The notes beneath the pieces are model-generated. The model ran no database searches. It was not told the DNA's origin and worked only from the letters and a program-made list of their open reading frames with translations. From Rodentibacter myodis (lineage in GTDB: Bacteria > Pseudomonadota > Gammaproteobacteria > Enterobacterales > Pasteurellaceae), in NCBI RefSeq assembly GCF_001999305.1, contig NZ_MLHQ01000015.1, forward strand, positions 1-24,000: a DNA stretch of 24,000 nt, read 5' to 3'. Shown here one piece after another: positions 520 through 21,479 of the stretch. A program made the translations under genes and the position numbers. Numbering within the stretch: position 1 is the stretch's first letter; every line of letters starts with the position of its first letter.

Positions 520-1338
520 ATGCGAAAACAACCTTTCCGTGCTGTTGTTTCTGATCTTGATGGTACCTTGTTGAATGCTAATCACGTTGTAGGTGATTTT
601 ACTATTGATATTTTAAATCGTTTGGAGCAACAAGGCGTTGATCTCATTCTTGCGACAGGGCGAAATCATACGGATGTTTCTTCTATTTTAGGAAAAATTG
701 GTGCTGAACGTGCGGTAATGATTACCTCAAATGGTGCAAGAGTAAGAGATTTAGAGGGCAATCTTATTTATAGCAATAGTTTACCGGAAGATATTGTATT
801 GGCACTTTATAAAACACCTTTTGATAACAGTCGTATTTGTTTAAATGCTTATCAAGATGAAGGTTGGTTTATTAATACGGATGTACCGGAACTCAAAGCA
901 TATCATCAAGATTCTCATTTTATGTATGAAGTGGTTAATTTCTCCCAACACCACGCACGAGCTGTTGAAAAAATTTTCTTTATCGGAAAAACACCCGAAG
1001 ATTTAGTTGAGGTTGAGCATTATTTACGCGAGCATTTTGGTGATGTAGTAAACATTGTTTATTCCGGATTAAGTTGCTTAGAAGTGATGAATAAAAATGT
1101 TTCTAAGGGTGAAGCATTAAAGTATGTACTGGCACAGAGGGACTACAATCTAGAAGATTGTATCGCCTTTGGTGATGGAATGAATGATGTGGAGATGCTA
1201 AAAAGTGTAGGGAAAGGGTGCATTATGGGAAATGCCGATATTCGTCTAAAACAGGCTTGCCCTTCACTTGAGCAAATCGGTTTAAATAAAGATGAAGCGG
1301 TGGCGCAATATCTTAAAAATATGTTTGAAATAAAATAA
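520..1338 (+). CDS. Cof-type HAD-IIB family sugar phosphatase
   Basis: HAD motif I is DLDGTLL near the N-terminus and motif IV is GDGMNDVEML. Length and cap region are typical of the Cof/YidA/YbiV group. ATG at 520 is preceded by GGAGG (507-511). The track start at 505 is a TTG. Confidence 0.9.
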   Translation: MRKQPFRAVVSDLDGTLLNANHVVGDFTIDILNRLEQQGVDLILATGRNHTDVSSILGKIGAERAVMITSNGARVRDLEGNLIYSNSLPEDIVLALYKTPFDNSRICLNAYQDEGWFINTDVPELKAYHQDSHFMYEVVNFSQHHARAVEKIFFIGKTPEDLVEVEHYLREHFGDVVNIVYSGLSCLEVMNKNVSKGEALKYVLAQRDYNLEDCIAFGDGMNDVEMLKSVGKGCIMGNADIRLKQACPSLEQIGLNKDEAVAQYLKNMFEIK

Positions 1339-1742
1339 TGTGGCAATCATTGTTATCTGTAAGTTGTGGGGCAGCACTGGGCGCCTTGTCGAGATGGGGA
1401 TTAGGTTTATGGCTTAATTCTCTTTTTTCTTATTTGGCTTTTGGCACATTACTGGCTAATTTAGTTGGCTGTTTTTTGATGGGAATAATGATTGCCATAT
1501 TTTGGCAATATCCTCAAATGAATACGCTATGGAAGTTATTTATTGTCACCGGATTTTTGAGCGCATTTACTACCTTTTCCTCTTTTTCTGCCGAAGTGAT
1601 TGAATATTTTATGTCGGATAAATGGCTAAAGGGTATTTTGATTATTTTTTCCCATTTGTTTGGTGGTTTGCTTTGTACAACCTTGGGGATTTTTATAGGA
1701 CGAATATTAGTTAAAAATCTTCTTCAGGAGCAGAACCGATAA
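1338..1742 (+). CDS. crcB: Fluoride ion channel CrcB/FluC
   Basis: A 134-aa protein with four hydrophobic helices, the CrcB-type motif FTTFSSFS and N-terminal GAxLGALxR. Its ATG overlaps the upstream stop (TAATG), which suggests translational coupling. Confidence 0.9.
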   Translation: MWQSLLSVSCGAALGALSRWGLGLWLNSLFSYLAFGTLLANLVGCFLMGIMIAIFWQYPQMNTLWKLFIVTGFLSAFTTFSSFSAEVIEYFMSDKWLKGILIIFSHLFGGLLCTTLGIFIGRILVKNLLQEQNR

Positions 1743-2169
1743 AGTCAGAGAATTCCTCGCTGTAAAAGCCGTGGGAAAGCATATATTGCCAAATTTTTTG
1801 CTTATTTTTGGGCATTTGCTTTTCGGCATAGTTGGGGAATTTTTTTCTTAATGTCGCAAAAGCAAGGGATGACCAATCAATATCAGATTCATAAAAAGCC
1901 TCTTCAACCACATCATTGGTTACTCCTTTTAGCTGACGAAGCTCTTGTTTAATTCTATTTACCCCATATCCTCGCTGAGATCGTGCATTGATATAATTCT
2001 CGGCAAAACGTTTATCATTTTGCCAATTTTTTTGTTGGCAATATGTCAATACGTACTCAATTTCTTCCTCAGAAAATGCTTTTTCCTGCATTTTATTTCG
2101 GAGTTCAAATTCACTGTATTCTCTGCGGGCAAGTAACTTGACCACATAGCCTAAAACAAGTGAAGACAT
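1711..2169 (-). CDS. recX: RecA regulator RecX
   Basis: A 152-aa protein directly downstream of recA on the same strand. It shows the helical-repeat RecX pattern (LLARREYSEFELRNKM..., NDKRFAENYINARSQRGYG..RIKQEL). A GGGGA Shine-Dalgarno lies upstream of the ATG. Confidence 0.9.
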   Translation of the reverse strand: MSSLVLGYVVKLLARREYSEFELRNKMQEKAFSEEEIEYVLTYCQQKNWQNDKRFAENYINARSQRGYGVNRIKQELRQLKGVTNDVVEEAFYESDIDWSSLAFATLRKKFPNYAEKQMPKNKQKIWQYMLSHGFYSEEFSDFIGSAPEEDF

Positions 2170-2183
2170 TGTTTTTCCCCATA

Positions 2184-2226
2184 AAAAGTGCGGTTAAAAT
2201 TTGAAGAAAAATTTAACCGCACTTGA
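2184..2226 (-). terminator. Inverted USS pair forming a hairpin between recA and recX (probable partial terminator/attenuator)
   Basis: AAGTGCGGTTAAA (2186-2198) pairs with TTTAACCGCACTT (2212-2224), giving a 13-bp stem. On the minus strand the hairpin is followed by TTTTAT. Confidence 0.6.
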
Positions 2227-2234
2227 TTATTAAT

Positions 2235-3290
2235 TTATTCGTCTTCTGAAGATTCTTCTTCGACTTGTTCAATATCTGCCATTAATGATTGCTCAGGATT
2301 AGCAACCAACTCGGCACGAAGTCTGGTTTCTAATTCTGCCGCTTTCTCGGTATGTTCATTTAACCATTTCATTGCATTGGCTTTACCTTGACCAATTTTT
2401 TCACCATTGTAAGCATACCAAGCACCCGATTTATCCACAAGTTTATGTTTTACACCCAATTCAATTAACTCGCCTGCTTTGGAAATACCTTCACCATAAA
2501 GGATTTGGAAATCTACCTGACGGAATGGAGCAGCAAGTTTATTTTTTACGACTTTTACTTTTGTTTCATTACCAATGATTTCCTCGCCATCTTTTACAGA
2601 GCCCGTACGGCGAATATCTAAACGCACAGAAGAGTAAAATTTGAGCGCGTTACCACCGGTTGTGGTTTCCGGATTGCCAAACATTACACCGATTTTCATA
2701 CGAATTTGGTTGATGAAAATCACCAAACAATTCGCACTTTTAATTTGACCGGTTAATTTACGCAATGCTTGAGACATTAAACGTGCTTGTAACCCCATAT
2801 GCGAATCACCCATATCGCCTTCAATTTCCGCTTTTGGCGTAAGGGCTGCAACGGAGTCCACAATCACCACATCGACAGCACCAGAGCGAACAAGTGCATC
2901 ACAAATTTCAAGCGCTTGTTCACCGTTATCCGGTTGAGAAACTAATAATTCTTTTACATCTACGCCAAGTTTTGCGGCATAAATAGGATCAAGTGCGTGT
3001 TCGGCATCAATAAATGCACAGGTTTTGCCTGCTTTTTGGGCTTGCGCGATAACAGATAAAGTGAGTGTGGTTTTACCGGAAGACTCGGGCCCAAAGATCT
3101 CAACGATACGTCCCATTGGCAAACCGCCGATCCCTAATGCCACATCAAGTCCGATTGAGCCGGTTGAGATCGATTCAACATCAAGTGCTTTGGTATCCCC
3201 TAATTTCATAATAGAGCCTTTACCAAATTGTTTTTCGATTTGTCCTAATGCTGCGGCAAGCGCTTTTTGTTTTTCTTCTTGAGTAGCCAT
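2235..3290 (-). CDS. recA: Recombinase RecA
   Basis: A 351-aa protein with Walker [10 protein letters not shown] and a near-canonical RecA sequence throughout (IMKLGD..., [18 protein letters not shown]). Confidence 0.99.
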
Positions 3291-3323
3291 TTTTTAACCT
3301 TTTATGTTATCAAATTTGTGTAG

Positions 3324-3352
3324 ATTGTATCTGTATTGATATACAGTATCAA
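3324..3352 (-). promoter_or_regulatory. Putative sigma70 promoter of recA
   Basis: On the minus strand, -35 TTGATA (3352-3347), a 17-bp spacer and -10 TACAAT (3329-3324). The SOS box fills the spacer, the same layout as the E. coli recA promoter. Confidence 0.6.
3329..3348 (-). promoter_or_regulatory. LexA (SOS) box in the recA promoter
   Basis: The minus strand reads TACTGTATATCAATACAGAT, which contains CTGT-N8-ACAG as in the gammaproteobacterial consensus TACTGTATATATATACAGTA. Confidence 0.8.
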
Positions 3353-3491
3353 GTGAATTTTTGATCTTTATGATAAAAATGTGAGTCAGCTCGTAGAATC
3401 AGGAAGAAAATGCTAAAAATTAGGGACGTTATCCCTTTCTGGTCAGAATAAAGCAAACGGTATATTCTCGATTCTAATAGTTTTTCGTGAT

Positions 3492-4493
3492 TTAACAGGA
3501 TTTTCCTATCATTAAAGGACAAGCCAGTTTATGACAATCTACATTTTTATGTCCTTCAATTAAATGTAAGGCAGCCTGTTCTCCCATTGCGTAATGAGGT
3601 AATTCTACGGTTGTGAGCGGCGGTATAAATAAATGAGCGATCCCTATCGTATTATCATATCCCGTTACTGCAATATCTTCAGGAATACGGTAGCCGTGGC
3701 TTAATAGTAATTGGTATGCTACAAAAGCGATTCGGTCGTTTCCACAAACAATCACATCATAATCGAGCTTTTTTGGTTGTTGTAGCATTTCGAGTAGTGG
3801 TTTGGCACCTTCAAAATAATCTTCCCCGTCTTCTTGCATAAAGTAGTTATCGATTTTTACACTCTCTTTTGGCGCTTGAGAAAAAAACGCTTTTTCAAAG
3901 CCTTCTTTTCGTGCTTTTGTAGCAATGTAATTATGTGGAATATGCAGAAATAATGGTTTTTTATAACCCTTTTCAGCCAATAATTTTCCAATTTCATATT
4001 GTCCTTGAAAATCATCGGGAATATAGCTTGCCACCGGTAAATCATTGGTCACACAATTTGCCAAAGCAATGGGAAACTGGCGTAATTTTTCAGGAATTTT
4101 CACCCTCTTTAACCCATTACGGGCAATAATAATCGCATTCGGGCGATGAGATACAAGCTGTTCAACCGCTTGCTCCATTTCTATTTCATCGTTTTCAAAA
4201 GCATTAATAACATAAGAATGCCAACCAAATTTGCGAACCGTCCTTTCTATACCTAATAAAATCTCAACAGAAAAAGGTGTTGTTGCCGTACCAAGAGACA
4301 ACACGCCAATCGTTTTTCCCGCTACACCGCGAATATTTTGTGCGGCAAAATTTGGTACATAACCGAGTTGATCAATGGCTTGTTTTACTGTTTGATAGGT
4401 TTTTTCGGATAATTTGTTGGGATTATTAATTGCTCGCGATACCGTCATCATTGAGACACCGGCTAAGTCCGCAACATCTTTAAGTGATACCAT
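3492..4493 (-). CDS. LacI/GalR-family transcriptional repressor (probable regulator of the adjacent lacYZ genes)
   Basis: N-terminal HTH LKDVADLAGVSMMTVSRAINNP, a periplasmic-binding-protein-like core and the YDN..G motif (VTGYDNTIG). AGGAGG lies upstream of the ATG. The gene is divergent from lacY. Confidence 0.9.
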   Translation of the reverse strand: MVSLKDVADLAGVSMMTVSRAINNPNKLSEKTYQTVKQAIDQLGYVPNFAAQNIRGVAGKTIGVLSLGTATTPFSVEILLGIERTVRKFGWHSYVINAFENDEIEMEQAVEQLVSHRPNAIIIARNGLKRVKIPEKLRQFPIALANCVTNDLPVASYIPDDFQGQYEIGKLLAEKGYKKPLFLHIPHNYIATKARKEGFEKAFFSQAPKESVKIDNYFMQEDGEDYFEGAKPLLEMLQQPKKLDYDVIVCGNDRIAFVAYQLLLSHGYRIPEDIAVTGYDNTIGIAHLFIPPLTTVELPHYAMGEQAALHLIEGHKNVDCHKLACPLMIGKSC

Positions 4494-4579
4494 AAACCTT
4501 TCCCTCCTTTTTTATTTCTAGAAAGTTTTTTGATTTATTATCCATTTATTTAATTTAGATCATACGCTGTTTTTACTGA

Positions 4580-4597
4580 ATTATTAGCGTTAACTGC
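4580..4597. promoter_or_regulatory. Weak LacI-type operator-like site (mostly a half-site)
   Basis: attattagCGttaactgc matches the right half GTTAAC of the two better sites, but its own two-fold symmetry is poor. Confidence 0.3.
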
Positions 4598-4626
4598 AAA
4601 ATCGTTCTCTATTTTTATTAACTTTA

Positions 4627-4644
4627 AATGTTAACGTTAAAATC
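4627..4644. promoter_or_regulatory. LacI-family operator candidate (distal)
   Basis: aatgttaaCGttaaaatc has a core TTAACGTTAA that is a perfect palindrome with the central CG typical of LacI/GalR operators. Confidence 0.6.
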
Positions 4645-4660
4645 TGTGATTAACATCACA
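4645..4660. promoter_or_regulatory. CRP (cAMP receptor protein) binding site
   Basis: TGTGAttaacaTCACA is a perfect TGTGA-N6-TCACA core. Confidence 0.75.
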
Positions 4661-4677
4661 AATTAGCCAAATTTAAT

Positions 4678-4705
4678 TTGTTAAAATAAATGTTATCGTT
4701 AACAT
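4678..4705 (+). promoter_or_regulatory. Putative lacYZ promoter
   Basis: -35 TTGTTA (4678-4683), a 16-bp spacer and -10 TAACAT (4700-4705). The CRP site centre (about 4652.5) would then lie near -60, a class I-like position. The hexamers are weak. Confidence 0.35.
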
Positions 4706-4706
4706 T
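4689..4706. promoter_or_regulatory. LacI-family operator candidate (promoter-proximal)
   Basis: AATGTTAtCGtTAACATT is an 18-bp palindrome (16/18 symmetric) with a central CG, about 37 bp upstream of the lacY ATG. It overlaps the putative -10. Confidence 0.7.
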
Positions 4707-4734
4707 AAGAGGGAATACTTTTAGGGAGTAAAAA

Positions 4735-9062
<4,328 letters not shown>

Positions 9063-15959: not shown

Positions 15960-15989
15960 TCCCTAAAATTCTCAGTATTATACAGTTAA

Positions 15990-16019
15990 AAAATCCACCT
16001 TCTACGAAGGTGGATTTTT
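15990..16019 (+). terminator. Rho-independent terminator of the OPT transporter gene
   Basis: Stem tccacctt (15994-16001) / aaggtgga (16007-16014) with loop ctacg, an A-run before and TTTTT after. Confidence 0.85.
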
Positions 16020-16020
16020 A

Positions 16021-16176
16021 TTATAGCCGGATACTTATTATTAAAGTCTTTCTCAATAATCGATCGAAAAACCTCTCCATAGCACCATTATCAAGGCAGT
16101 TACCTTTTTCCGCCATACTTTGTTTCATCCCCTTTTCCTTCAATAAATTTTGATAAGCCTGCATTTGATAAAGTGA
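16021..16176 (-). pseudogene. Remnant of an IS3-family (IS150-like) transposase, C-terminal part of the rve/DDE domain
   Basis: The minus-strand frame reads ...SLYQMQAYQNLLKEKGMKQSMAEKGNCLDNGAMERFFDRLLRKTL... with no start codon. It matches the conserved IS3-family block YQ..Y..LL...G...SMSRKGNC.DNA.ME.FF..LK.E. Only about 50 codons remain, truncated on both sides. Confidence 0.55.
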
Positions 16177-16184
16177 AAAAATCG

Positions 16185-16229
16185 CAAGGAGTATACTCCT
16201 TGTTGTTATCTCTTTACAGAGATAACAAC
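16185..16229. repeat. Two abutting perfect inverted repeats (an 18-bp palindrome, then a 12-bp-stem hairpin)
   Basis: caaggagtatactccttg (16185-16202) is a perfect palindrome. gttgttatctct (16202-16213) / agagataacaac (16218-16229) forms a stem with loop ttac. Function is unknown. Confidence 0.6.
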
Positions 16230-16547
16230 TCCTCTTGCTAAACTTTTTTAAGGAATGTTTGAGGGGGAATAAATGGTATTAAAACTTCGTAATTTCAATA
16301 GGTTATCATTAATCTTTAGCTTTAGGTAACGCGGTCTATTGCTTCTCTTTTGAGCAAATAGAATTCTATGAACCGGAGTAACAGGATTTAAGATTGTTTG
16401 AGTTTACGGATCCTTAGTATCAGGAGAGATTAAGAAAAATATGGGTTTTTCTTTTTCTAAAAATAAGAATACGTGCTTTACTTTCAATTGTTTACGTTAT
16501 GGTGAGCACAGTTTTTAATTAACGATGATTTAATATAGGTACCTTAT

Positions 16548-18224
16548 ATGAACAATTTAATTAAATTTAGCTTAACTCTTGTTGCTGCAGGTATTTTGGC
16601 TGCTTGTGGTTCATCAGGTGGTTCAAGTAATAATGCAGAGGCAGAAAAAGCTGCACAACAGCAAGCCGCAGAAAAAGCAGCTGCAGAAAAAGCAGCCGCA
16701 GAGAAAGCAGCAGCGGAAAAAGCTGCAGCTGAGGCTCAAGCAAAAAAAGATAATGCAGCTGTTAACCGTGGTGGTAAATTTGTAAATAAAATTGGTTCTG
16801 ATCTTATTTTAGATAACGACACTAAAGGTCAAAATTTGAACCGTATGTCTAACAATGCCGAAATGACAGTTCCATTTGAAACTTATAGTGATGGTAGTGC
16901 TTCGGCTTCTGCTCGTTTAGATACAGTTGTAGTGGGTACACCTAATCCAAATCAAAAATCCGGAAAATTAGGTTATGTTGAAGATTTTGATTTTGTTGGT
17001 AATACGGCAAACAACGGCGAAACCACTTTATCAACAATCTATCTTGTAAATGAAAACGATAAAACTGATGCCTCTAAAACTACAGTAGGTGGAACCGCTC
17101 GCGCTAAAACCGAAACCAAAACATCAACTGCCGGTACTGAAGCGGGTAAAGCATTTGTTTATGATAACCAAGACCGTGTGGATTATACCAACCACGGAAA
17201 CACCGGTGGACGCAGTGATGTTGTATTAAAAGACTCTGTAGCTGAAGTTTATGGACACCGTACTTTTGCTCAAGATTATACACAAGATACCGAGAACGGT
17301 ACTAAATATGGTAATAAAGCAGATCAAAGCAATTTACCTTTAGTTACTGCTAAAACCGACCGCTTAGGTAATACTTATTTTGAAGCTCATCAAGTAAGTA
17401 CTCAAGATGGTGTGACTACAGTAAAAAATGCATTAGGACACGAAAATACAGGGGCTGCGGATAGCTATACCGGTGCAACATTACAACGTGTTCAATATGG
17501 TCGTGTTACTTCATCGTTAAATGATTCGGCTTACTTAGAGAATCAAGGACTTTATAAAGATGGCGTGGCACCGAATACCTTTGTGGTAAATTACGGTGAA
17601 TACGGTGATAAAGGTACTGAAAATAACTATTTCTATCGCGGTGTACAACCAACAACTAAAGAAGAGTTAGCGAAATTATCCGGTACTTTAACTTACCAAG
17701 GTCATGCTGTTGCATTTGGTTTACATAATCCGGCGACAGATGGTGTGGCAGGCCCTGTTACTAACACAACGAATGGTGCAGATAATCCCGCTAACGCGGT
17801 TTCAGCAAGACCTTCTGTGACAACAACTACTCCGGCGCCGGCAAATTGGGCATTAAAATCCGGTCACCATGTACAAGCAACGGTTGATTTGGCAACTAAA
17901 GCTGTAAGCGGTAGTGTTTATGATGTTTATCAAAAAGCAAATGCGGCTGACCGTGTTCAAACTTTAGCAACCTTCAAAGGTGATGTTGCTGCACAAGGTA
18001 ATATTGCAGGTACTTCTGCTAAAGCATACGGCGATAAAGCAACCGGTTCTTTCCAAGCAAACTTATTTGGTCCACAAGCTCAAGAGTTAGGCGGTTCAAT
18101 TATTTCTGATGCGAAAGACGCTAATAAATGGGGTGCGGTATTTGGCGCGGTTAAAACCGGCGGTCCTGTTACATTAGACAATCCATTTGCTGCATCAACA
18201 GATAAAAATAACAATTCTAACTAA
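16548..18224 (+). CDS. Surface lipoprotein with a TbpB-like C-terminal beta-barrel (putative Slam-dependent cargo); ligand unknown
   Basis: Signal peptide with lipobox LAAC (Cys20, Gly at +2), a GSSGGSSNN tether and an (A)AEKA repeat stalk. The C-terminal region shows the motif series of TbpB/LbpB/HpuA-type barrels: NNYFYRGVQPTTKEELAKLSGTLTYQGHAVAF, ATVDLATKAVSGSVY, FKGDVAAQGNIAGT, GSFQANLFGPQAQELGGSI, WGAVFGAVK. A Slam gene is adjacent. Confidence 0.85.
   Translation: MNNLIKFSLTLVAAGILAACGSSGGSSNNAEAEKAAQQQAAEKAAAEKAAAEKAAAEKAAAEAQAKKDNAAVNRGGKFVNKIGSDLILDNDTKGQNLNRMSNNAEMTVPFETYSDGSASASARLDTVVVGTPNPNQKSGKLGYVEDFDFVGNTANNGETTLSTIYLVNENDKTDASKTTVGGTARAKTETKTSTAGTEAGKAFVYDNQDRVDYTNHGNTGGRSDVVLKDSVAEVYGHRTFAQDYTQDTENGTKYGNKADQSNLPLVTAKTDRLGNTYFEAHQVSTQDGVTTVKNALGHENTGAADSYTGATLQRVQYGRVTSSLNDSAYLENQGLYKDGVAPNTFVVNYGEYGDKGTENNYFYRGVQPTTKEELAKLSGTLTYQGHAVAFGLHNPATDGVAGPVTNTTNGADNPANAVSARPSVTTTTPAPANWALKSGHHVQATVDLATKAVSGSVYDVYQKANAADRVQTLATFKGDVAAQGNIAGTSAKAYGDKATGSFQANLFGPQAQELGGSIISDAKDANKWGAVFGAVKTGGPVTLDNPFAASTDKNNNSN
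16665..16724 (+). repeat. Four imperfect tandem 15-bp repeats encoding AAEKA units
   Basis: The units are gccgcagaaaaagca / gctgcagaaaaagca / gccgcagagaaagca / gcagcggaaaaagct. They differ only at synonymous positions. Degenerate copies flank them (16635-16745). Confidence 0.85.
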
Positions 18225-18244
18225 TTTGGGTTTTTTATTCGTAA

Positions 18245-18274
18245 ACAGTCCACCTAAAAGTGGGCTGTTTTTTT
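18245..18274 (+). terminator. Rho-independent terminator between the lipoprotein gene and the Slam gene
   Basis: Stem acagtccac (18245-18253) / gtgggctgt (18260-18268), 9 bp with one G-U pair, loop ctaaaa, followed by a T-run to 18274. Confidence 0.75.
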
Positions 18275-18295
18275 CTATAACATAAGAAGGTCGTT

Positions 18296-19768
18296 ATGAA
18301 AAAATATTCCCTTTCCATTGTATTTGGTATGTTATTAACATTGCCTCATTTTAGTTATGCCCAAACCGTTAATATAAGAGATGTTGAAAAAACAAAAATA
18401 GAAACGGATAAAATTAATACTAAAACAGTTCAAGAAGATCTGTTACGACAAGAAATGTTAAGTGGTGAACAAGAATTTAAATTATCCGAAAACGCTAAAG
18501 CAGATTTAATAAAAAATTCAGTTCAGTTAGAACAAGCGATTGTTCAGGCACTTATTTATCGTAATATAAAAGCATTACCTGAATTAATTTCAGTATATCG
18601 ACAAGTTAATGATCGAGATGATTCATTAATTGAATGGGCAGATGCCATCTTATCAATTAATAATGATCTTGATGAGTCTATAAAAATTTATCGTAAACTT
18701 ATTTCGGCTTTTCCTGATAATTCTTTTATTCGCTATCAACTTGCTGAAACTTTATTTTTTAACCAAGAGTACGAAGCCGCAAAAAGCCAATTTGAGAAAA
18801 TAAGAACAACGGTTTCTAACCCTAAAGATGTTGAAGTGATCAATCGCTATATTGATGTGATTAATTCTAAAGAGCAGTGGAATTTCTCATTTGGTACAAC
18901 TTTTTTAAATGATCCTAATCTTGCCGATGCTGCTGATGAGGGTACACAAATGACATTACAAAATGGTGCTGTGCTTACCTATAATACACCAAAACAAAAA
19001 GGACAAGGTATTTCAGCTTGGTTTGGGGCGGATAAACAATGGGCATTATCTAATGGAAAATATTTAAAACTTAGTTCGGGAATGAGTGGAAAATATTATT
19101 GGGATAATAAACGTTATAATGATTTGGATACTAATATTGGGCTGGGATTTGGCTATTCAAATGCGAAGTTTAATATTGAGTTTATGCCACGTGTTTACAA
19201 AAGATGGTATGCAGGTGGATATAATTATGGCAATGCACTTAAACGTTATTCAACCAATTATGGCGCAAGCATAACGACTAATTATTGGTTGACACAACAA
19301 CTAAAATATACATTTAGCTACAGCTTTGGTTATGATAAATATGACAGAGAAGTGAATGCTAACCAATATGACGGCCCTGCACATTATTTTACTAATGCGC
19401 TATCTTATTTACCAAGTGCAAAACAATATTGGATGCTTGCAGTAGATCTTTCTCGTAAAAAGGCGAAAGATCATAGTAATAGTTATTCCCGCTATGGAAC
19501 GCGTTTGGTTTGGGGACAGGAATGGCCGCTTGGAATATCCAGTGCGATCTCTTTAGGTATAGCAAAACGTAACTATAAAGAAGCAAGTTTTTTAGGTAAA
19601 CAGGAAAATAAAGAATATTCATCAGGTGTTTCTTTATGGCATAAAGAAATTCATTATGCAGGTTTTACACCTCGAATTACTTGGAATTATACAAAAACTG
19701 ATAGTAACATTCCGTTTTATAGCTATGACAAATCGCTGATATTTATTGAAGCCAGTCGAACATTCTAA
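18296..19768 (+). CDS. Surface lipoprotein assembly modulator (Slam), DUF560-family outer-membrane protein (type XI-like secretion)
   Basis: Sec signal peptide (...LPHFSYA/Q). The N-terminal helical TPR-like region is IKIYRKLISAFPDNSFIRYQLAETLFFNQEYEAAKSQFEKI. The C-terminal roughly 300 aa show an amphipathic beta-strand pattern rich in Y/W/G/N. The C-terminus reads ...GFTPRITWNYTKTDSNIPFYSYDKSLIFIEASRTF, ending in an aromatic residue as in Neisseria Slam1/2 and other DUF560 proteins. A GAAGG Shine-Dalgarno is present. Confidence 0.88.
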   Translation: MKKYSLSIVFGMLLTLPHFSYAQTVNIRDVEKTKIETDKINTKTVQEDLLRQEMLSGEQEFKLSENAKADLIKNSVQLEQAIVQALIYRNIKALPELISVYRQVNDRDDSLIEWADAILSINNDLDESIKIYRKLISAFPDNSFIRYQLAETLFFNQEYEAAKSQFEKIRTTVSNPKDVEVINRYIDVINSKEQWNFSFGTTFLNDPNLADAADEGTQMTLQNGAVLTYNTPKQKGQGISAWFGADKQWALSNGKYLKLSSGMSGKYYWDNKRYNDLDTNIGLGFGYSNAKFNIEFMPRVYKRWYAGGYNYGNALKRYSTNYGASITTNYWLTQQLKYTFSYSFGYDKYDREVNANQYDGPAHYFTNALSYLPSAKQYWMLAVDLSRKKAKDHSNSYSRYGTRLVWGQEWPLGISSAISLGIAKRNYKEASFLGKQENKEYSSGVSLWHKEIHYAGFTPRITWNYTKTDSNIPFYSYDKSLIFIEASRTF

Positions 19769-20199
19769 TTTTTCAATATAATAAAGTAAGCATTTTCTAA
19801 TTAACTTTAAATAGGAAGTGCTTATTTTATATCTATTATTTTTATCTAAGTATAGTGATGAAATGAATTATGCCGCCTTAAACTTTTTATTGAACTGCTT
19901 AATTTGAGGAAAAAAGCCTTTATATTTGTAAGTTAGTGAAAAGCCTGACTGTAAGTAAATACAATGACAGGATCGCAGGTTTTAGATAACTGAAACAAAA
20001 AGCAAAGTCTGTCGTTGTCGGTGATACTGTCACCGCTGAAATAATCGGCAATTTCGGTATTGGTTTTCGCTTGGGGTTGTTGGCTGAACGATGGTGCTTT
20101 CTTCTTTTCTGTTGTTTAATAGCTCTTGAGTATCTTGTATCTCAATGAGAAGCCAAAATATCAACATAAGGATTCTATAAAAAAGGGCTATTTTCCTAT

Positions 20200-20233
20200 A
20201 AAATAGGCTATCTTTTCCGATAGCCTATTTTTT
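20200..20233 (+). terminator. Hairpin plus T-run ending exactly at the ATG of the next gene (terminator or regulatory stem)
   Basis: aaaataggctatc (20200-20212) / gatagcctatttt (20219-20231) with loop ttttcc, and the T-run continues to 20233. An upstream direct copy ggctattttcc (20186-20196) allows an alternative stem ctatttt / aaaatag. Confidence 0.55.
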
Positions 20234-20659
20234 ATGAAGCCTTATCTTAAAACACTCATTTTATTTCCCTTGATGTTACAGGTGTTGGCAACAGCATTAT
20301 TTGGTTTTTTAGATGCGGATCTTAGCCCGATGCCTTTCAGTCGTTATGTTGTTACCGCATTTTTCCTCGCCACCATTCCCGCTTTTCTTATCGCCCTTAT
20401 TGCCACAAGGTTTGGCTATGTTCGCCATAATATTGCCGCTATTGTGTTATGTTCATCTTTAGTTGCTTTTTGTTATTGCAACATTGCGGCGTATTTCTAT
20501 TTGTTGGTGATGAGCGAAGAAACGCCCTCATTTTGGCAATGGATCACCGAAGGAGGATTATCCCTTGGGCTACTAAGTGTGTGCGGAATGGTGTTTTATT
20601 CGTTGTTTGTCATACCGTGGTTGTTGCCAAAAGAAAAATCCTCATCGCCCGATTGTTAA
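20234..20659 (+). CDS. Small integral membrane protein of unknown function (4 predicted TM helices)
   Basis: A 141-aa ORF with four hydrophobic segments. Its stop lies 10 nt before the cysQ ATG, and the cysQ Shine-Dalgarno overlaps its 3' end. No recognisable Shine-Dalgarno precedes its own start. As I recall, an equivalent small ORF (HI_0560) sits here in H. influenzae. Confidence 0.55.
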   Translation: MKPYLKTLILFPLMLQVLATALFGFLDADLSPMPFSRYVVTAFFLATIPAFLIALIATRFGYVRHNIAAIVLCSSLVAFCYCNIAAYFYLLVMSEETPSFWQWITEGGLSLGLLSVCGMVFYSLFVIPWLLPKEKSSSPDC

Positions 20660-20669
20660 GGAGAACATT

Positions 20670-21479
20670 ATGCTGATACTTAATGAACACTTACTGAACC
20701 AAATCCTGCTTATTGCTTACCAAGCCGGTAATCATTTGCAACGTTTTTATCACCAACAGATTAACGTGAAAATAAAAGAAGATAACACACCGGTGACGGA
20801 AGCAGATTTGTTCGTCAGTCAATTTTTAACGGAAAAATTGACCGCACTTTTTCCCCATATTCCCGTGCTTTCAGAAGAAAATTGCCATATTCCTTTTGAA
20901 GAACGTCAAACGTGGAAAGAATATTGGTTGATTGACCCCCTTGACGGCACGCAACAATTTATTAATCGCACGGATCAATTTTCCGTTTTAATCACCCTTG
21001 TGCGTAAAAATAAGCCGGTAATGAGCATTATTCACGCGCCGGTTTTATCCCTTACTTATTATGCGATGGAAGACTTTGGTGCGTACAAAAAACAAGGTGA
21101 GCACGTGAAAAAACTCACAAAAAATACCGTCAAATTTGACCGCACTTTGCGGATCGCCGTGGGGGCAACCACTTCGCAAGAAAAAGTGCGGTCAATTTTG
21201 CCCAAGAATATCGATTGTGAATTTGTGGTATTAGGTTCAAGCAGCCTAAAAAGCGGTCTCGTGGCAGAAAGTGCCGTAGATTGTTATATTCGACTTGGAA
21301 GAACGGGCGAATGGGATACTGCAGGGGCAGAAGTTTTATTAGGCGAAATGAACGGGCAAATTTTCGATCAACATTTTAAACCGCTGACTTATAACCAGCG
21401 TGAAACCTTAATTAATCCCTATTTTGTGATGGTGGCGGATAAATCGGCGGATTGGCAATCTATCTTTCAATTTAATTGA
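20670..21479 (+). CDS. cysQ: 3'(2'),5'-bisphosphate nucleotidase CysQ (inositol monophosphatase family)
   Basis: Motifs VTEADL, VLSEE, WLIDPLDGT and EWDTAGAE are present. ATG at 20670 is preceded by AAGGAG (20658-20663). The track start at 20577 overlaps the upstream gene. Confidence 0.9.
   Translation: MLILNEHLLNQILLIAYQAGNHLQRFYHQQINVKIKEDNTPVTEADLFVSQFLTEKLTALFPHIPVLSEENCHIPFEERQTWKEYWLIDPLDGTQQFINRTDQFSVLITLVRKNKPVMSIIHAPVLSLTYYAMEDFGAYKKQGEHVKKLTKNTVKFDRTLRIAVGATTSQEKVRSILPKNIDCEFVVLGSSSLKSGLVAESAVDCYIRLGRTGEWDTAGAEVLLGEMNGQIFDQHFKPLTYNQRETLINPYFVMVADKSADWQSIFQFN
20841..20849 (-). repeat. USS core
   Basis: Perfect ACCGCACTT, the first USS after the island. Confidence 0.9.
21139..21147 (-). 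repeat. USS core
   Basis: Perfect ACCGCACTT, inside cysQ. Confidence 0.9.
21184..21192 (+). repeat. USS core
   Basis: Perfect AAGTGCGGT followed by caatttt, inside cysQ. Confidence 0.9.

Follow-up and report, generated by a model that had tools for sequence, protein, structure and literature searches.

A type 11 secretion (Slam) cassette of Rodentibacter myodis pairs a single-lobe TbpB-like lipoprotein with its translocon across a conserved intergenic hairpin

The 24,000-bp stretch of Rodentibacter myodis DNA analyzed here, called the window in the following, carries at 16548-19768 a gene for a TbpB-like lipoprotein (the cargo) and, directly downstream, a gene for a surface lipoprotein assembly modifier (Slam), the outer-membrane protein of a type 11 secretion system (T11SS). 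Several described Slam substrates come close to this cargo. TbpB and LbpB of Neisseriaceae, Pasteurellaceae and Moraxellaceae are Slam-dependent lipoproteins built from handle-plus-barrel lobes. The fHbp protein of Neisseria and PmSLP-1 of Pasteurella multocida, which binds factor I, are single handle-plus-barrel Slam substrates. They act without a TonB-dependent receptor, possess a flexible or extended N-terminal anchor and bind host complement regulators; PmSLP exists as divergent allelic types. Cargo of the hemophilin, HphA and HpuA type is small (254-272 aa), and an example from Haemophilus parainfluenzae carries HpuA and HphA_C signatures. Finally, a "Pls-like" class of 173 lipoproteins, encoded next to cluster 1 T11SS outer-membrane proteins, was described recently (PMC12282271; Grossman et al., 2025, Microb Genom 11:001406); its members start with an alpha-helical repeat, continue with a beta "pedestal" or handle and end in a barrel. 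The Haemophilus parahaemolyticus Pls of that class (STO63610.1, 525 aa) was surface-exposed and released in Escherichia coli only together with the Slam TepS (STO63613.1). The Pls-like repeat helix was interpreted as homologous to Staphylococcus aureus Pls, and aberrant mobility in sodium dodecyl sulfate polyacrylamide gel electrophoresis (SDS-PAGE) was reported (PMC12282271). The Actinobacillus pleuropneumoniae vaccine paper cited for "Pls" (PMC7012816) mentions neither Pls nor a TbpB-like protein.

The two open reading frames (ORFs) of the pair lie on the + strand at 16548-18224 (558 aa) and 18296-19768 (490 aa) and are separated by 71 bp. The cargo was 100% identical over 558 aa to OOF58568.1 / WP_077423829.1 of R. 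myodis. Both genes are listed in the supplement of PMC12282271, one row giving OOF58569.1, MLHQ01000015.1 and OOF58568.1 at 16547 18224 + with PF01298 (TbpB_B_D), a second row giving OOF58569.1 at 18295 19768 + with PF04575 (DUF560). These coordinates correspond to those of the window, which therefore forms the beginning of that contig. The pair is thus already published among the T11SS outer-membrane proteins and their co-occurring TbpB_B_D genes, and it is not the new module for which an earlier reading made from the sequence alone (the sequence-only reading) had put it forward as a candidate. The names used by NCBI agree with the catalogue, "transferrin-binding protein-like solute binding protein" for the cargo family and "surface lipoprotein assembly modifier" for the partner. 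As the pair is catalogued and correctly named, and as receptor-less Slam-cargo pairs are established, the discovery value of the locus itself is small. The two genes form a cognate Slam cassette of R. myodis, a rodent commensal, with the following features.

16548-18224, + strand: cargo gene, 558-aa outer-membrane lipoprotein OOF58568.1 / WP_077423829.1 (ORF, Pfam, identity, catalogue)
16548-16607, + strand: lipoprotein signal peptide with lipobox LAAC, Cys20 and Gly at +2 (sequence; homologue alignment)
16632-16751, + strand: Ala/Glu/Lys-rich alpha-helical stalk, aa 29-68, including the (AEKAA)n repeats at 16664-16723 (AlphaFold2, Tandem Repeats Finder)
16752-17663, + strand: predicted family-specific beta-rich handle domain, aa 69-372 (conserved motifs; no Pfam handle match; handle profile)
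17679-18155, + strand: C-terminal eight-stranded beta-barrel, aa 378-536, TbpB_B_D / FHBP_C type, presumed Slam recognition domain (Pfam, PDB profile, AlphaFold2, Foldseek)
18243-18277, + strand: conserved intrinsic-terminator-like hairpin, 11-bp stem, 6-nt loop and U-run (folding, covariation)
18296-19768, + strand: Slam / T11SS outer-membrane protein gene, 490 aa, OOF58569.1 (ORF, Pfam, catalogue)
18296-18361, + strand: putative Sec signal peptide of Slam, MKKYSLSIVFGMLLTLPHFSYA / QTV (inspection)
18494-18793, + strand: periplasmic TPR domain of Slam, aa 67-166 (Pfam TPR_Slam, E-value 7.8e-26)
18878-19765, + strand: SlipAM (DUF560) membrane beta-barrel of Slam, aa 195-490, ending ...ASRTF (Pfam, E-value 4.5e-74)

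The sequence-only reading had assigned the downstream protein to the Slam/DUF560 family and the upstream protein to the lipoproteins with a TbpB-type C-terminal barrel, and both assignments were borne out. For the Slam protein, the SlipAM match (PF04575) covered positions 1-288 of the 288 model positions with 250 bits against a cut-off of 22, and the periplasmic domain matched TPR_Slam (PF24575). Its C-terminus SNIPFYSYDKSLIFIEASRTF was present, and the terminal aromatic residue is typical of outer-membrane barrels. The cargo starts with MNNLIKFSLTLVAAGILAAC followed by GSSGG. Its lipobox L17-A18-A19-C20 with Gly21 as outer-membrane sorting residue at +2 fits the pattern [LVI][ASTVI][GAS]C taken from PMC10075479, and L17, A19 and C20 were invariant in 40 homologues (alignment A1). 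All motifs quoted earlier were found in the translation, namely NNYFYRGVQPTTKEELAKLSGTLTYQGHA, VDLATKAVSG, FKGDVAAQGNIAG, GSFQANLFGPQAQELGG, GAVFGAVK, EVYGHRTF and LQRVQYGRVTS. Pfam reported one TbpB_B_D stretch in the cargo (aa 378-536, E-value 8.9e-15) and a match to FHBP_C (E-value 9.6e-7). The Pfam scores of both proteins were far above chance and exceeded the curated cut-offs.

Combining alignment A1 with an AlphaFold2 model of the cargo (predicted TM score 0.71, mean predicted local distance difference test score, pLDDT, of 64), four parts were distinguished. The signal peptide and lipobox (aa 1-20) with a Gly/Ser linker are followed by a helix of aa 29-68 (pLDDT 74-83) rich in Ala, Glu and Lys, which is encoded in part by four in-frame 15-nt tandem repeats, (AEKAA)4, at 16664-16723 (Tandem Repeats Finder: period 15, 4.0 copies). 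Then comes a beta-rich handle of about aa 69-372, its strands modeled at pLDDT 60-85 and its loops below 50, and finally the barrel with eight strands at aa 380-537 and a pLDDT of about 90. In Foldseek the model matched single TbpB and LbpB lobes best (E-value about 1e-9; TM score about 0.5, normalised to a TbpB C-lobe), then fHbp. Searches of solved structures with the single sequence and with a profile matched only TbpB barrels (PDB profile, TbpB, E-value 5.9e-10). A cryptic two-lobed TbpB was considered and rejected, given the single TbpB_B_D stretch and the hhalign probability of 0.1% for the handle against its own barrel, which leaves no hidden second lobe.

The roughly 300 aa between stalk and barrel had been described as showing only handle-like hints and no motif assignable to a ligand. 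They are not devoid of motifs but form a strongly conserved, family-specific handle, with these invariant motifs in the homologue alignments: LDTVVV, Y.EDFDF, KT..G..G...VY, AEVYG.RT, N.P, L..VQYGRVT and E..YF.RG. Neither the known handle domains TbpB_A and TbpB_C (E-values up to 1) nor HpuA and HphA_C gave a Pfam match in the cargo. No His, Cys or Met of the handle was invariant; homologues have L, F, Y or R in place of His237. Variable or inserted loops were located at aa 108-122, 171-180, 267-310 and 395-435 of the window protein, where other members mostly show gaps. Two family members (P0298, 830 aa, and P0306, 873 aa) carry an insertion of about 200 aa, helical or coiled-coil-like in appearance, which separates the YLEDFD and TKTD motifs of the handle. 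The same two proteins also have stalks of more than 100 aa, and the YLEDFD-TKTD loop is an apparent insertion hot spot.

Using a handle-only profile against 1.84 billion protein representatives, 94 matches were obtained at an E-value up to 1e-3 and 53 at an E-value up to 1e-30, nearly all of them 480-620 aa in size. Full-length homologues of 35-42% identity were found in Rodentibacter, Aggregatibacter kilianii, Ursidibacter, H. parainfluenzae, Haemophilus paracuniculus, Actinobacillus (genomosp. 2, arthritidis, indolicus), Spirabiliibacterium, Mesocricetibacter and Pasteurella caecimuris and, outside the Pasteurellaceae, in Alysiella crassa and a metagenome-assembled genome (MAG) of the Cardiobacteriaceae. 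The Rodentibacter haemolyticus orthologue was full length and 91% identical. Judged from these matches, the cargo family is compact and mainly at home in commensal Pasteurellaceae. No H. parahaemolyticus protein was named among the matches of the cargo searches or of the Slam-profile search, and none of the 16 loci obtained in the genome scan came from that species. No A. pleuropneumoniae member was among the named matches, and the scan patterns would miss divergent members.

The Slam had been called an "orphan", which is a misnomer: in every related locus that reaches past the cargo gene, in at least six genera, a Slam gene follows the cargo gene directly. Slams paired with cargo of this family in other species, which diverge together with their cargo, showed 41-57% identity to the window Slam, while Slams of about 36% identity are paired instead with TbpB_B_D cargo of 254-272 aa. 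Slam type therefore tracks cargo type, which supports a cognate pair. The second Slam subgroup (479-480 aa) was seen in H. parainfluenzae (L021), where the small cargo also matches HpuA and FHBP_C, and in Aggregatibacter actinomycetemcomitans (L022), where no TonB-dependent receptor adjoins the small-cargo/Slam pair.

One feature of the cassette that is new in the present analysis is the covarying terminator hairpin between the two genes. It folds with a minimum free energy of -19.1 kcal/mol (z -2.9), and an equivalent hairpin was found in all 15 other loci examined, across genera (16/16 with the window). In a 15-sequence alignment 95.8% of the cells were paired and 4 of 10 pairs showed changes on both sides. 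The covariation score was reached by 0 of 500 shuffles, and slid controls paired at 33-57%. The motif ACAGYYC..GRRCTGT occurs once in the window, with none expected by chance, and has a single exact copy in each of 13 related loci, always at the cargo/Slam junction. A generic terminator or an uptake-signal repeat was considered for the hairpin and was rejected because the motif is found only once per locus and only at this junction. Between the U-run and the Slam start codon of the window only about 25 nt remain, including the ribosome-binding site, so transcription of the Slam gene would have to pass through the hairpin. Most likely, Slam is expressed by read-through only, which would set a high cargo-to-Slam ratio with the cargo made in excess over its translocon.

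Compared with the described systems, the cargo shares with TbpB and LbpB the handle-plus-barrel lobe of a presumably Slam-dependent lipoprotein, the TbpB_B_D barrel with its FG..A.ELGG and GA.FGA strand motifs, and the best Foldseek and PDB profile matches. It differs from them in having one lobe instead of two, in lacking a TbpB_A or TbpB_C handle match, and in a locus with neither an adjoining TbpA gene nor a Fur box. Like fHbp and PmSLP-1 it is a single handle-plus-barrel protein and a predicted Slam substrate, and the FHBP_C match and the fHbp structures among the Foldseek matches add to this likeness; however, the cargo is about 240-300 aa longer and its handle of about 300 aa much larger. 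PmSLP-1 gave no sequence-level match to the cargo in the PDB searches and was absent from the top 50 Foldseek matches. With cargo of the hemophilin, HphA and HpuA type it has in common the TbpB_B_D barrel, an adjoining Slam gene and the bacterial families in which both occur, whereas its 558 aa contain neither HpuA nor HphA_C and its Slam belongs to a different subgroup, as seen from the identity of about 36%. The cargo is indeed larger than hemophilin and PmSLP, as had been noted; its size is nevertheless nothing unusual, since it lies within the norm of its family. To the Pls-like class it is similar in architecture (Ala/Glu/Lys-rich helical repeat, handle, eight-stranded barrel) and in adjoining a Pasteurellaceae T11SS outer-membrane protein. 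It was likened to STO63610.1 by architecture alone and may be a homologue or may only share that architecture. The repeats differ, AEKAA in the cargo versus EEARKA; a search of the family for EEARKA gave near matches only, AEEARQA in P0086 and P0090. The helix is also read differently, as a spacer and not as a Pls effector domain.

We consider the following joint explanation likely. Sec would export the cargo, which would receive its lipid at Cys20 and then be brought to the outer membrane on its inner leaflet. The downstream Slam would recognise the C-terminal eight-stranded barrel of the cargo and move the protein to the cell surface, as has been demonstrated for other pairs. There, the helix of about 40 residues would hold the single TbpB-like lobe of handle and barrel away from the membrane. 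The hairpin would restrict Slam synthesis to read-through, keeping the cargo in excess, and the cassette, located in a low-GC stretch beside an insertion sequence (IS) remnant, would be swapped as a unit between Rodentibacter species. At the surface, the cargo would bind a host factor, soluble or mucosal, and thereby serve colonisation or immune evasion in a way similar to fHbp or PmSLP-1. Of all this, the domain identities, the conserved pairing, the covariation of the hairpin and the catalogue entry are observed, whereas surface display, control of the stoichiometry and the class of ligand are deduced.

For the role of the cargo, binding of a host factor was weighed against capture of a nutrient (iron, haem, zinc or another metal), either with an unlinked TonB-dependent receptor or as a shed, hemophore-like protein. 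The sequence-only reading had reported no receptor partner nearby. This holds, as Pfam found no TonB-dependent receptor domain in the 16 other main ORFs of the 24-kb window, nor was one seen when the ten largest flanking ORFs of nine related loci were tested. What does not hold is that this is unusual: receptor-less Slam-lipoprotein clusters are common and an established category, a TonB-dependent receptor being present in 120 of 185 such clusters and missing in 65 (Hooda 2017). The regulatory evidence comes from the region preceding the cargo gene.

15960-16547, + strand: 588-bp AT-rich upstream intergenic region without a Fur box (GC 0.33-0.35; motif, Rfam and promoter scans)

The best Fur-box match upstream of the cargo gene in the window comprised 12 of 19 bases (p about 0.7 versus shuffles), and for the window together with 13 related loci the best matches were 10-13 of 19 bases, not above shuffled sequence. 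Scans of the same 14 upstream regions with the CRP, FNR and ArcA consensus sequences gave nothing above shuffles. No strong sigma-70 consensus was seen on the + strand of 15960-16547, and the window had no Rfam match. A Zur-box-like site, AAGAGGTAAGAATATAACATTTC (18/23 bases, a score reached by 0 of 200 shuffles), was observed less than 450 bp upstream of the cargo gene (which starts at 7992) in two H. parainfluenzae MAGs (L011, L012) only, and not in the window.

Nutrient capture draws support from the fold, which comes closest to the TbpB and LbpB lobes that bind transferrin and lactoferrin, from the overall co-occurrence of cluster 1 T11SS loci with metal and haem pathways, from Slam substrates that can be unlinked from their partners (Hooda 2017), from the release of H. 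parahaemolyticus Pls into the supernatant with TepS (PMC12282271), and from the Zur-like box, restricted as it is to the H. parainfluenzae family members. It is opposed by the missing receptor in the window and the related loci, by the Fur box found upstream in 0 of 14 loci, by the lack of any match to HpuA, HphA_C, TbpB_A or TbpB_C in the cargo, and by a handle that keeps no invariant His, Cys or Met, with His237 replaced in homologues. We therefore regard nutrient capture as unlikely, although it is the strongest of the alternatives. Binding of a host factor appears the most likely role, favored over TonB-coupled iron piracy because neither a linked TonB-dependent receptor nor a Fur box was found, because the handle lacks the invariant residues named, and because the named hosts are mostly commensals.

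Several observations weigh against the joint explanation given above. The handle of the model is only moderately confident, with a pLDDT of about 50-80, and a handle-only AlphaFold2 model (alignment A3) reached a pLDDT of only 41. The upstream regions were judged free of a Fur box by the consensus of E. coli alone. The gene for a TonB-dependent receptor could also lie at a distant site of the genome, as is the case for the Neisseria Slam1 substrates (Hooda 2017). Finally, terminator function and read-through at the hairpin are deduced from sequence and covariation.

A further alternative concerns the helix, which might itself be the effector, a "Pls-like" glycosylated anti-adhesive or biofilm-modulating domain, with handle and barrel serving only as a secretion tag. 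The published reading of the Pls-like repeat helix as a homologue of S. aureus Pls and its aberrant SDS-PAGE mobility speak for this. Yet the helix of the cargo is only about 40 aa long and consists of low-complexity (AEKAA)n, and composition alone would make repeats rich in Ala, Glu and Lys look alike; we infer that the likeness to staphylococcal Pls is most simply due to this composition. Among 161 family members, 130 stalks were rich in Ala, Glu, Lys and Gln, while 9 were Pro/Thr/Ser-rich linkers, and stalk length ranged from 16 to 199 aa, with handle and barrel kept throughout. As length and composition vary in this way while the handle keeps many invariant residues, we take the helix for a rigid spacer that corresponds to the "anchoring peptide" known from TbpB and PmSLP-1, and consider an effector function of the helix quite improbable.

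Upstream of the pair, the ORFs of the window were assigned by Pfam to a HAD hydrolase, CrcB, RecX, RecA, LacI-LacY-LacZ, RecQ, a LysA-type decarboxylase, an S4-domain protein, a NUDIX hydrolase and an OPT transporter; downstream follow a small membrane protein, a CysQ-like phosphatase, Zwf and a PhzF-like protein. GC content was 0.30-0.39 over the cassette with the non-coding DNA around it (15.9-20.4 kb) and 0.40-0.48 in the neighbouring housekeeping genes. One small ORF of this low-GC stretch points to a mobile element.

16021-16164, - strand: putative degraded IS-type transposase remnant (integrase core), 47-aa ORF (translation with SMAEKGNCLDNGAMERFF; rve_3, E-value 1.1e-3)

Lying directly upstream of the cassette, this ORF is tentatively likened to the C-terminal portion of the integrase core of IS-type transposases, the rve_3 score being under the curated cut-off. 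In Rodentibacter abscessus (L004, 8001-17560) a cargo/Slam pair occupies the same site after RecQ, LysA, NUDIX and OPT. The identity between the two species was 92% for OPT and 82% for NUDIX, but 42% for the cargo and 52% for Slam. After the R. abscessus cassette, a TpsB/TpsA two-partner secretion pair takes the place of CysQ and Zwf of the window. Apparently the cassette was exchanged as a whole between Rodentibacter species, at a site that seems to be a hot spot of surface-protein genes. The low GC content, the adjoining IS remnant and a 465-bp non-coding gap downstream of Slam could be cited for a horizontally acquired island in decay, of which the pair would be a non-functional relic. This is scarcely credible, since both ORFs are intact, run the full length and fit complete Pfam models, the R. 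haemolyticus orthologue shows 91% identity over its full length, and invariant residues, lipobox and hairpin are all kept.

Some additional observations were made in the surroundings of the cassette. The 465-bp AT-rich stretch after Slam (19769-20233) contains no ORF of 60 aa or more and may hold gene remnants; no terminator-like site was detected on its + strand. The listed GTG start of the CysQ-like ORF (20577-21479) overlaps the preceding 141-aa membrane ORF. As its Pfam match begins only at residue 40, translation probably starts from the internal ATG (MLILNEHLL...) near 20667. A complete lacI (- strand), lacY, lacZ cluster at 3492-9062 adjoins recA and recX. In an H. parainfluenzae locus (L011) the cargo gene is preceded at a distance of about 4.6 kb by a gene for a pertactin-type autotransporter (821-3355).

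Tentatively, the handle may recognise a host molecule that is new among the targets of Slam-displayed lipoproteins, and the hairpin may be a dedicated attenuator setting the cargo-to-translocon ratio; both ideas are speculative at present. We have not seen such an attenuator described for T11SS loci. Since the core of the handle is nearly invariant in bacteria of rodents, humans, horses, pigs, bears, bats and birds, its target would be a conserved mucosal or serum component. If so, the cargo would serve commensal Pasteurellaceae in general as a colonisation factor, among them H. parainfluenzae, which is abundant in the human mouth. The family is abundant in human oral metagenomes, with some H. 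parainfluenzae-like clusters holding hundreds of members, and, compact and well conserved as it is, it should be tractable for ligand pull-down and possibly of interest as a vaccine-type antigen. Cassette replacement at a fixed chromosomal site would parallel the allelic types of PmSLP and thereby be relevant to antigenic diversity, and a conserved read-through terminator between cargo and translocon would provide a simple design rule for T11SS loci.

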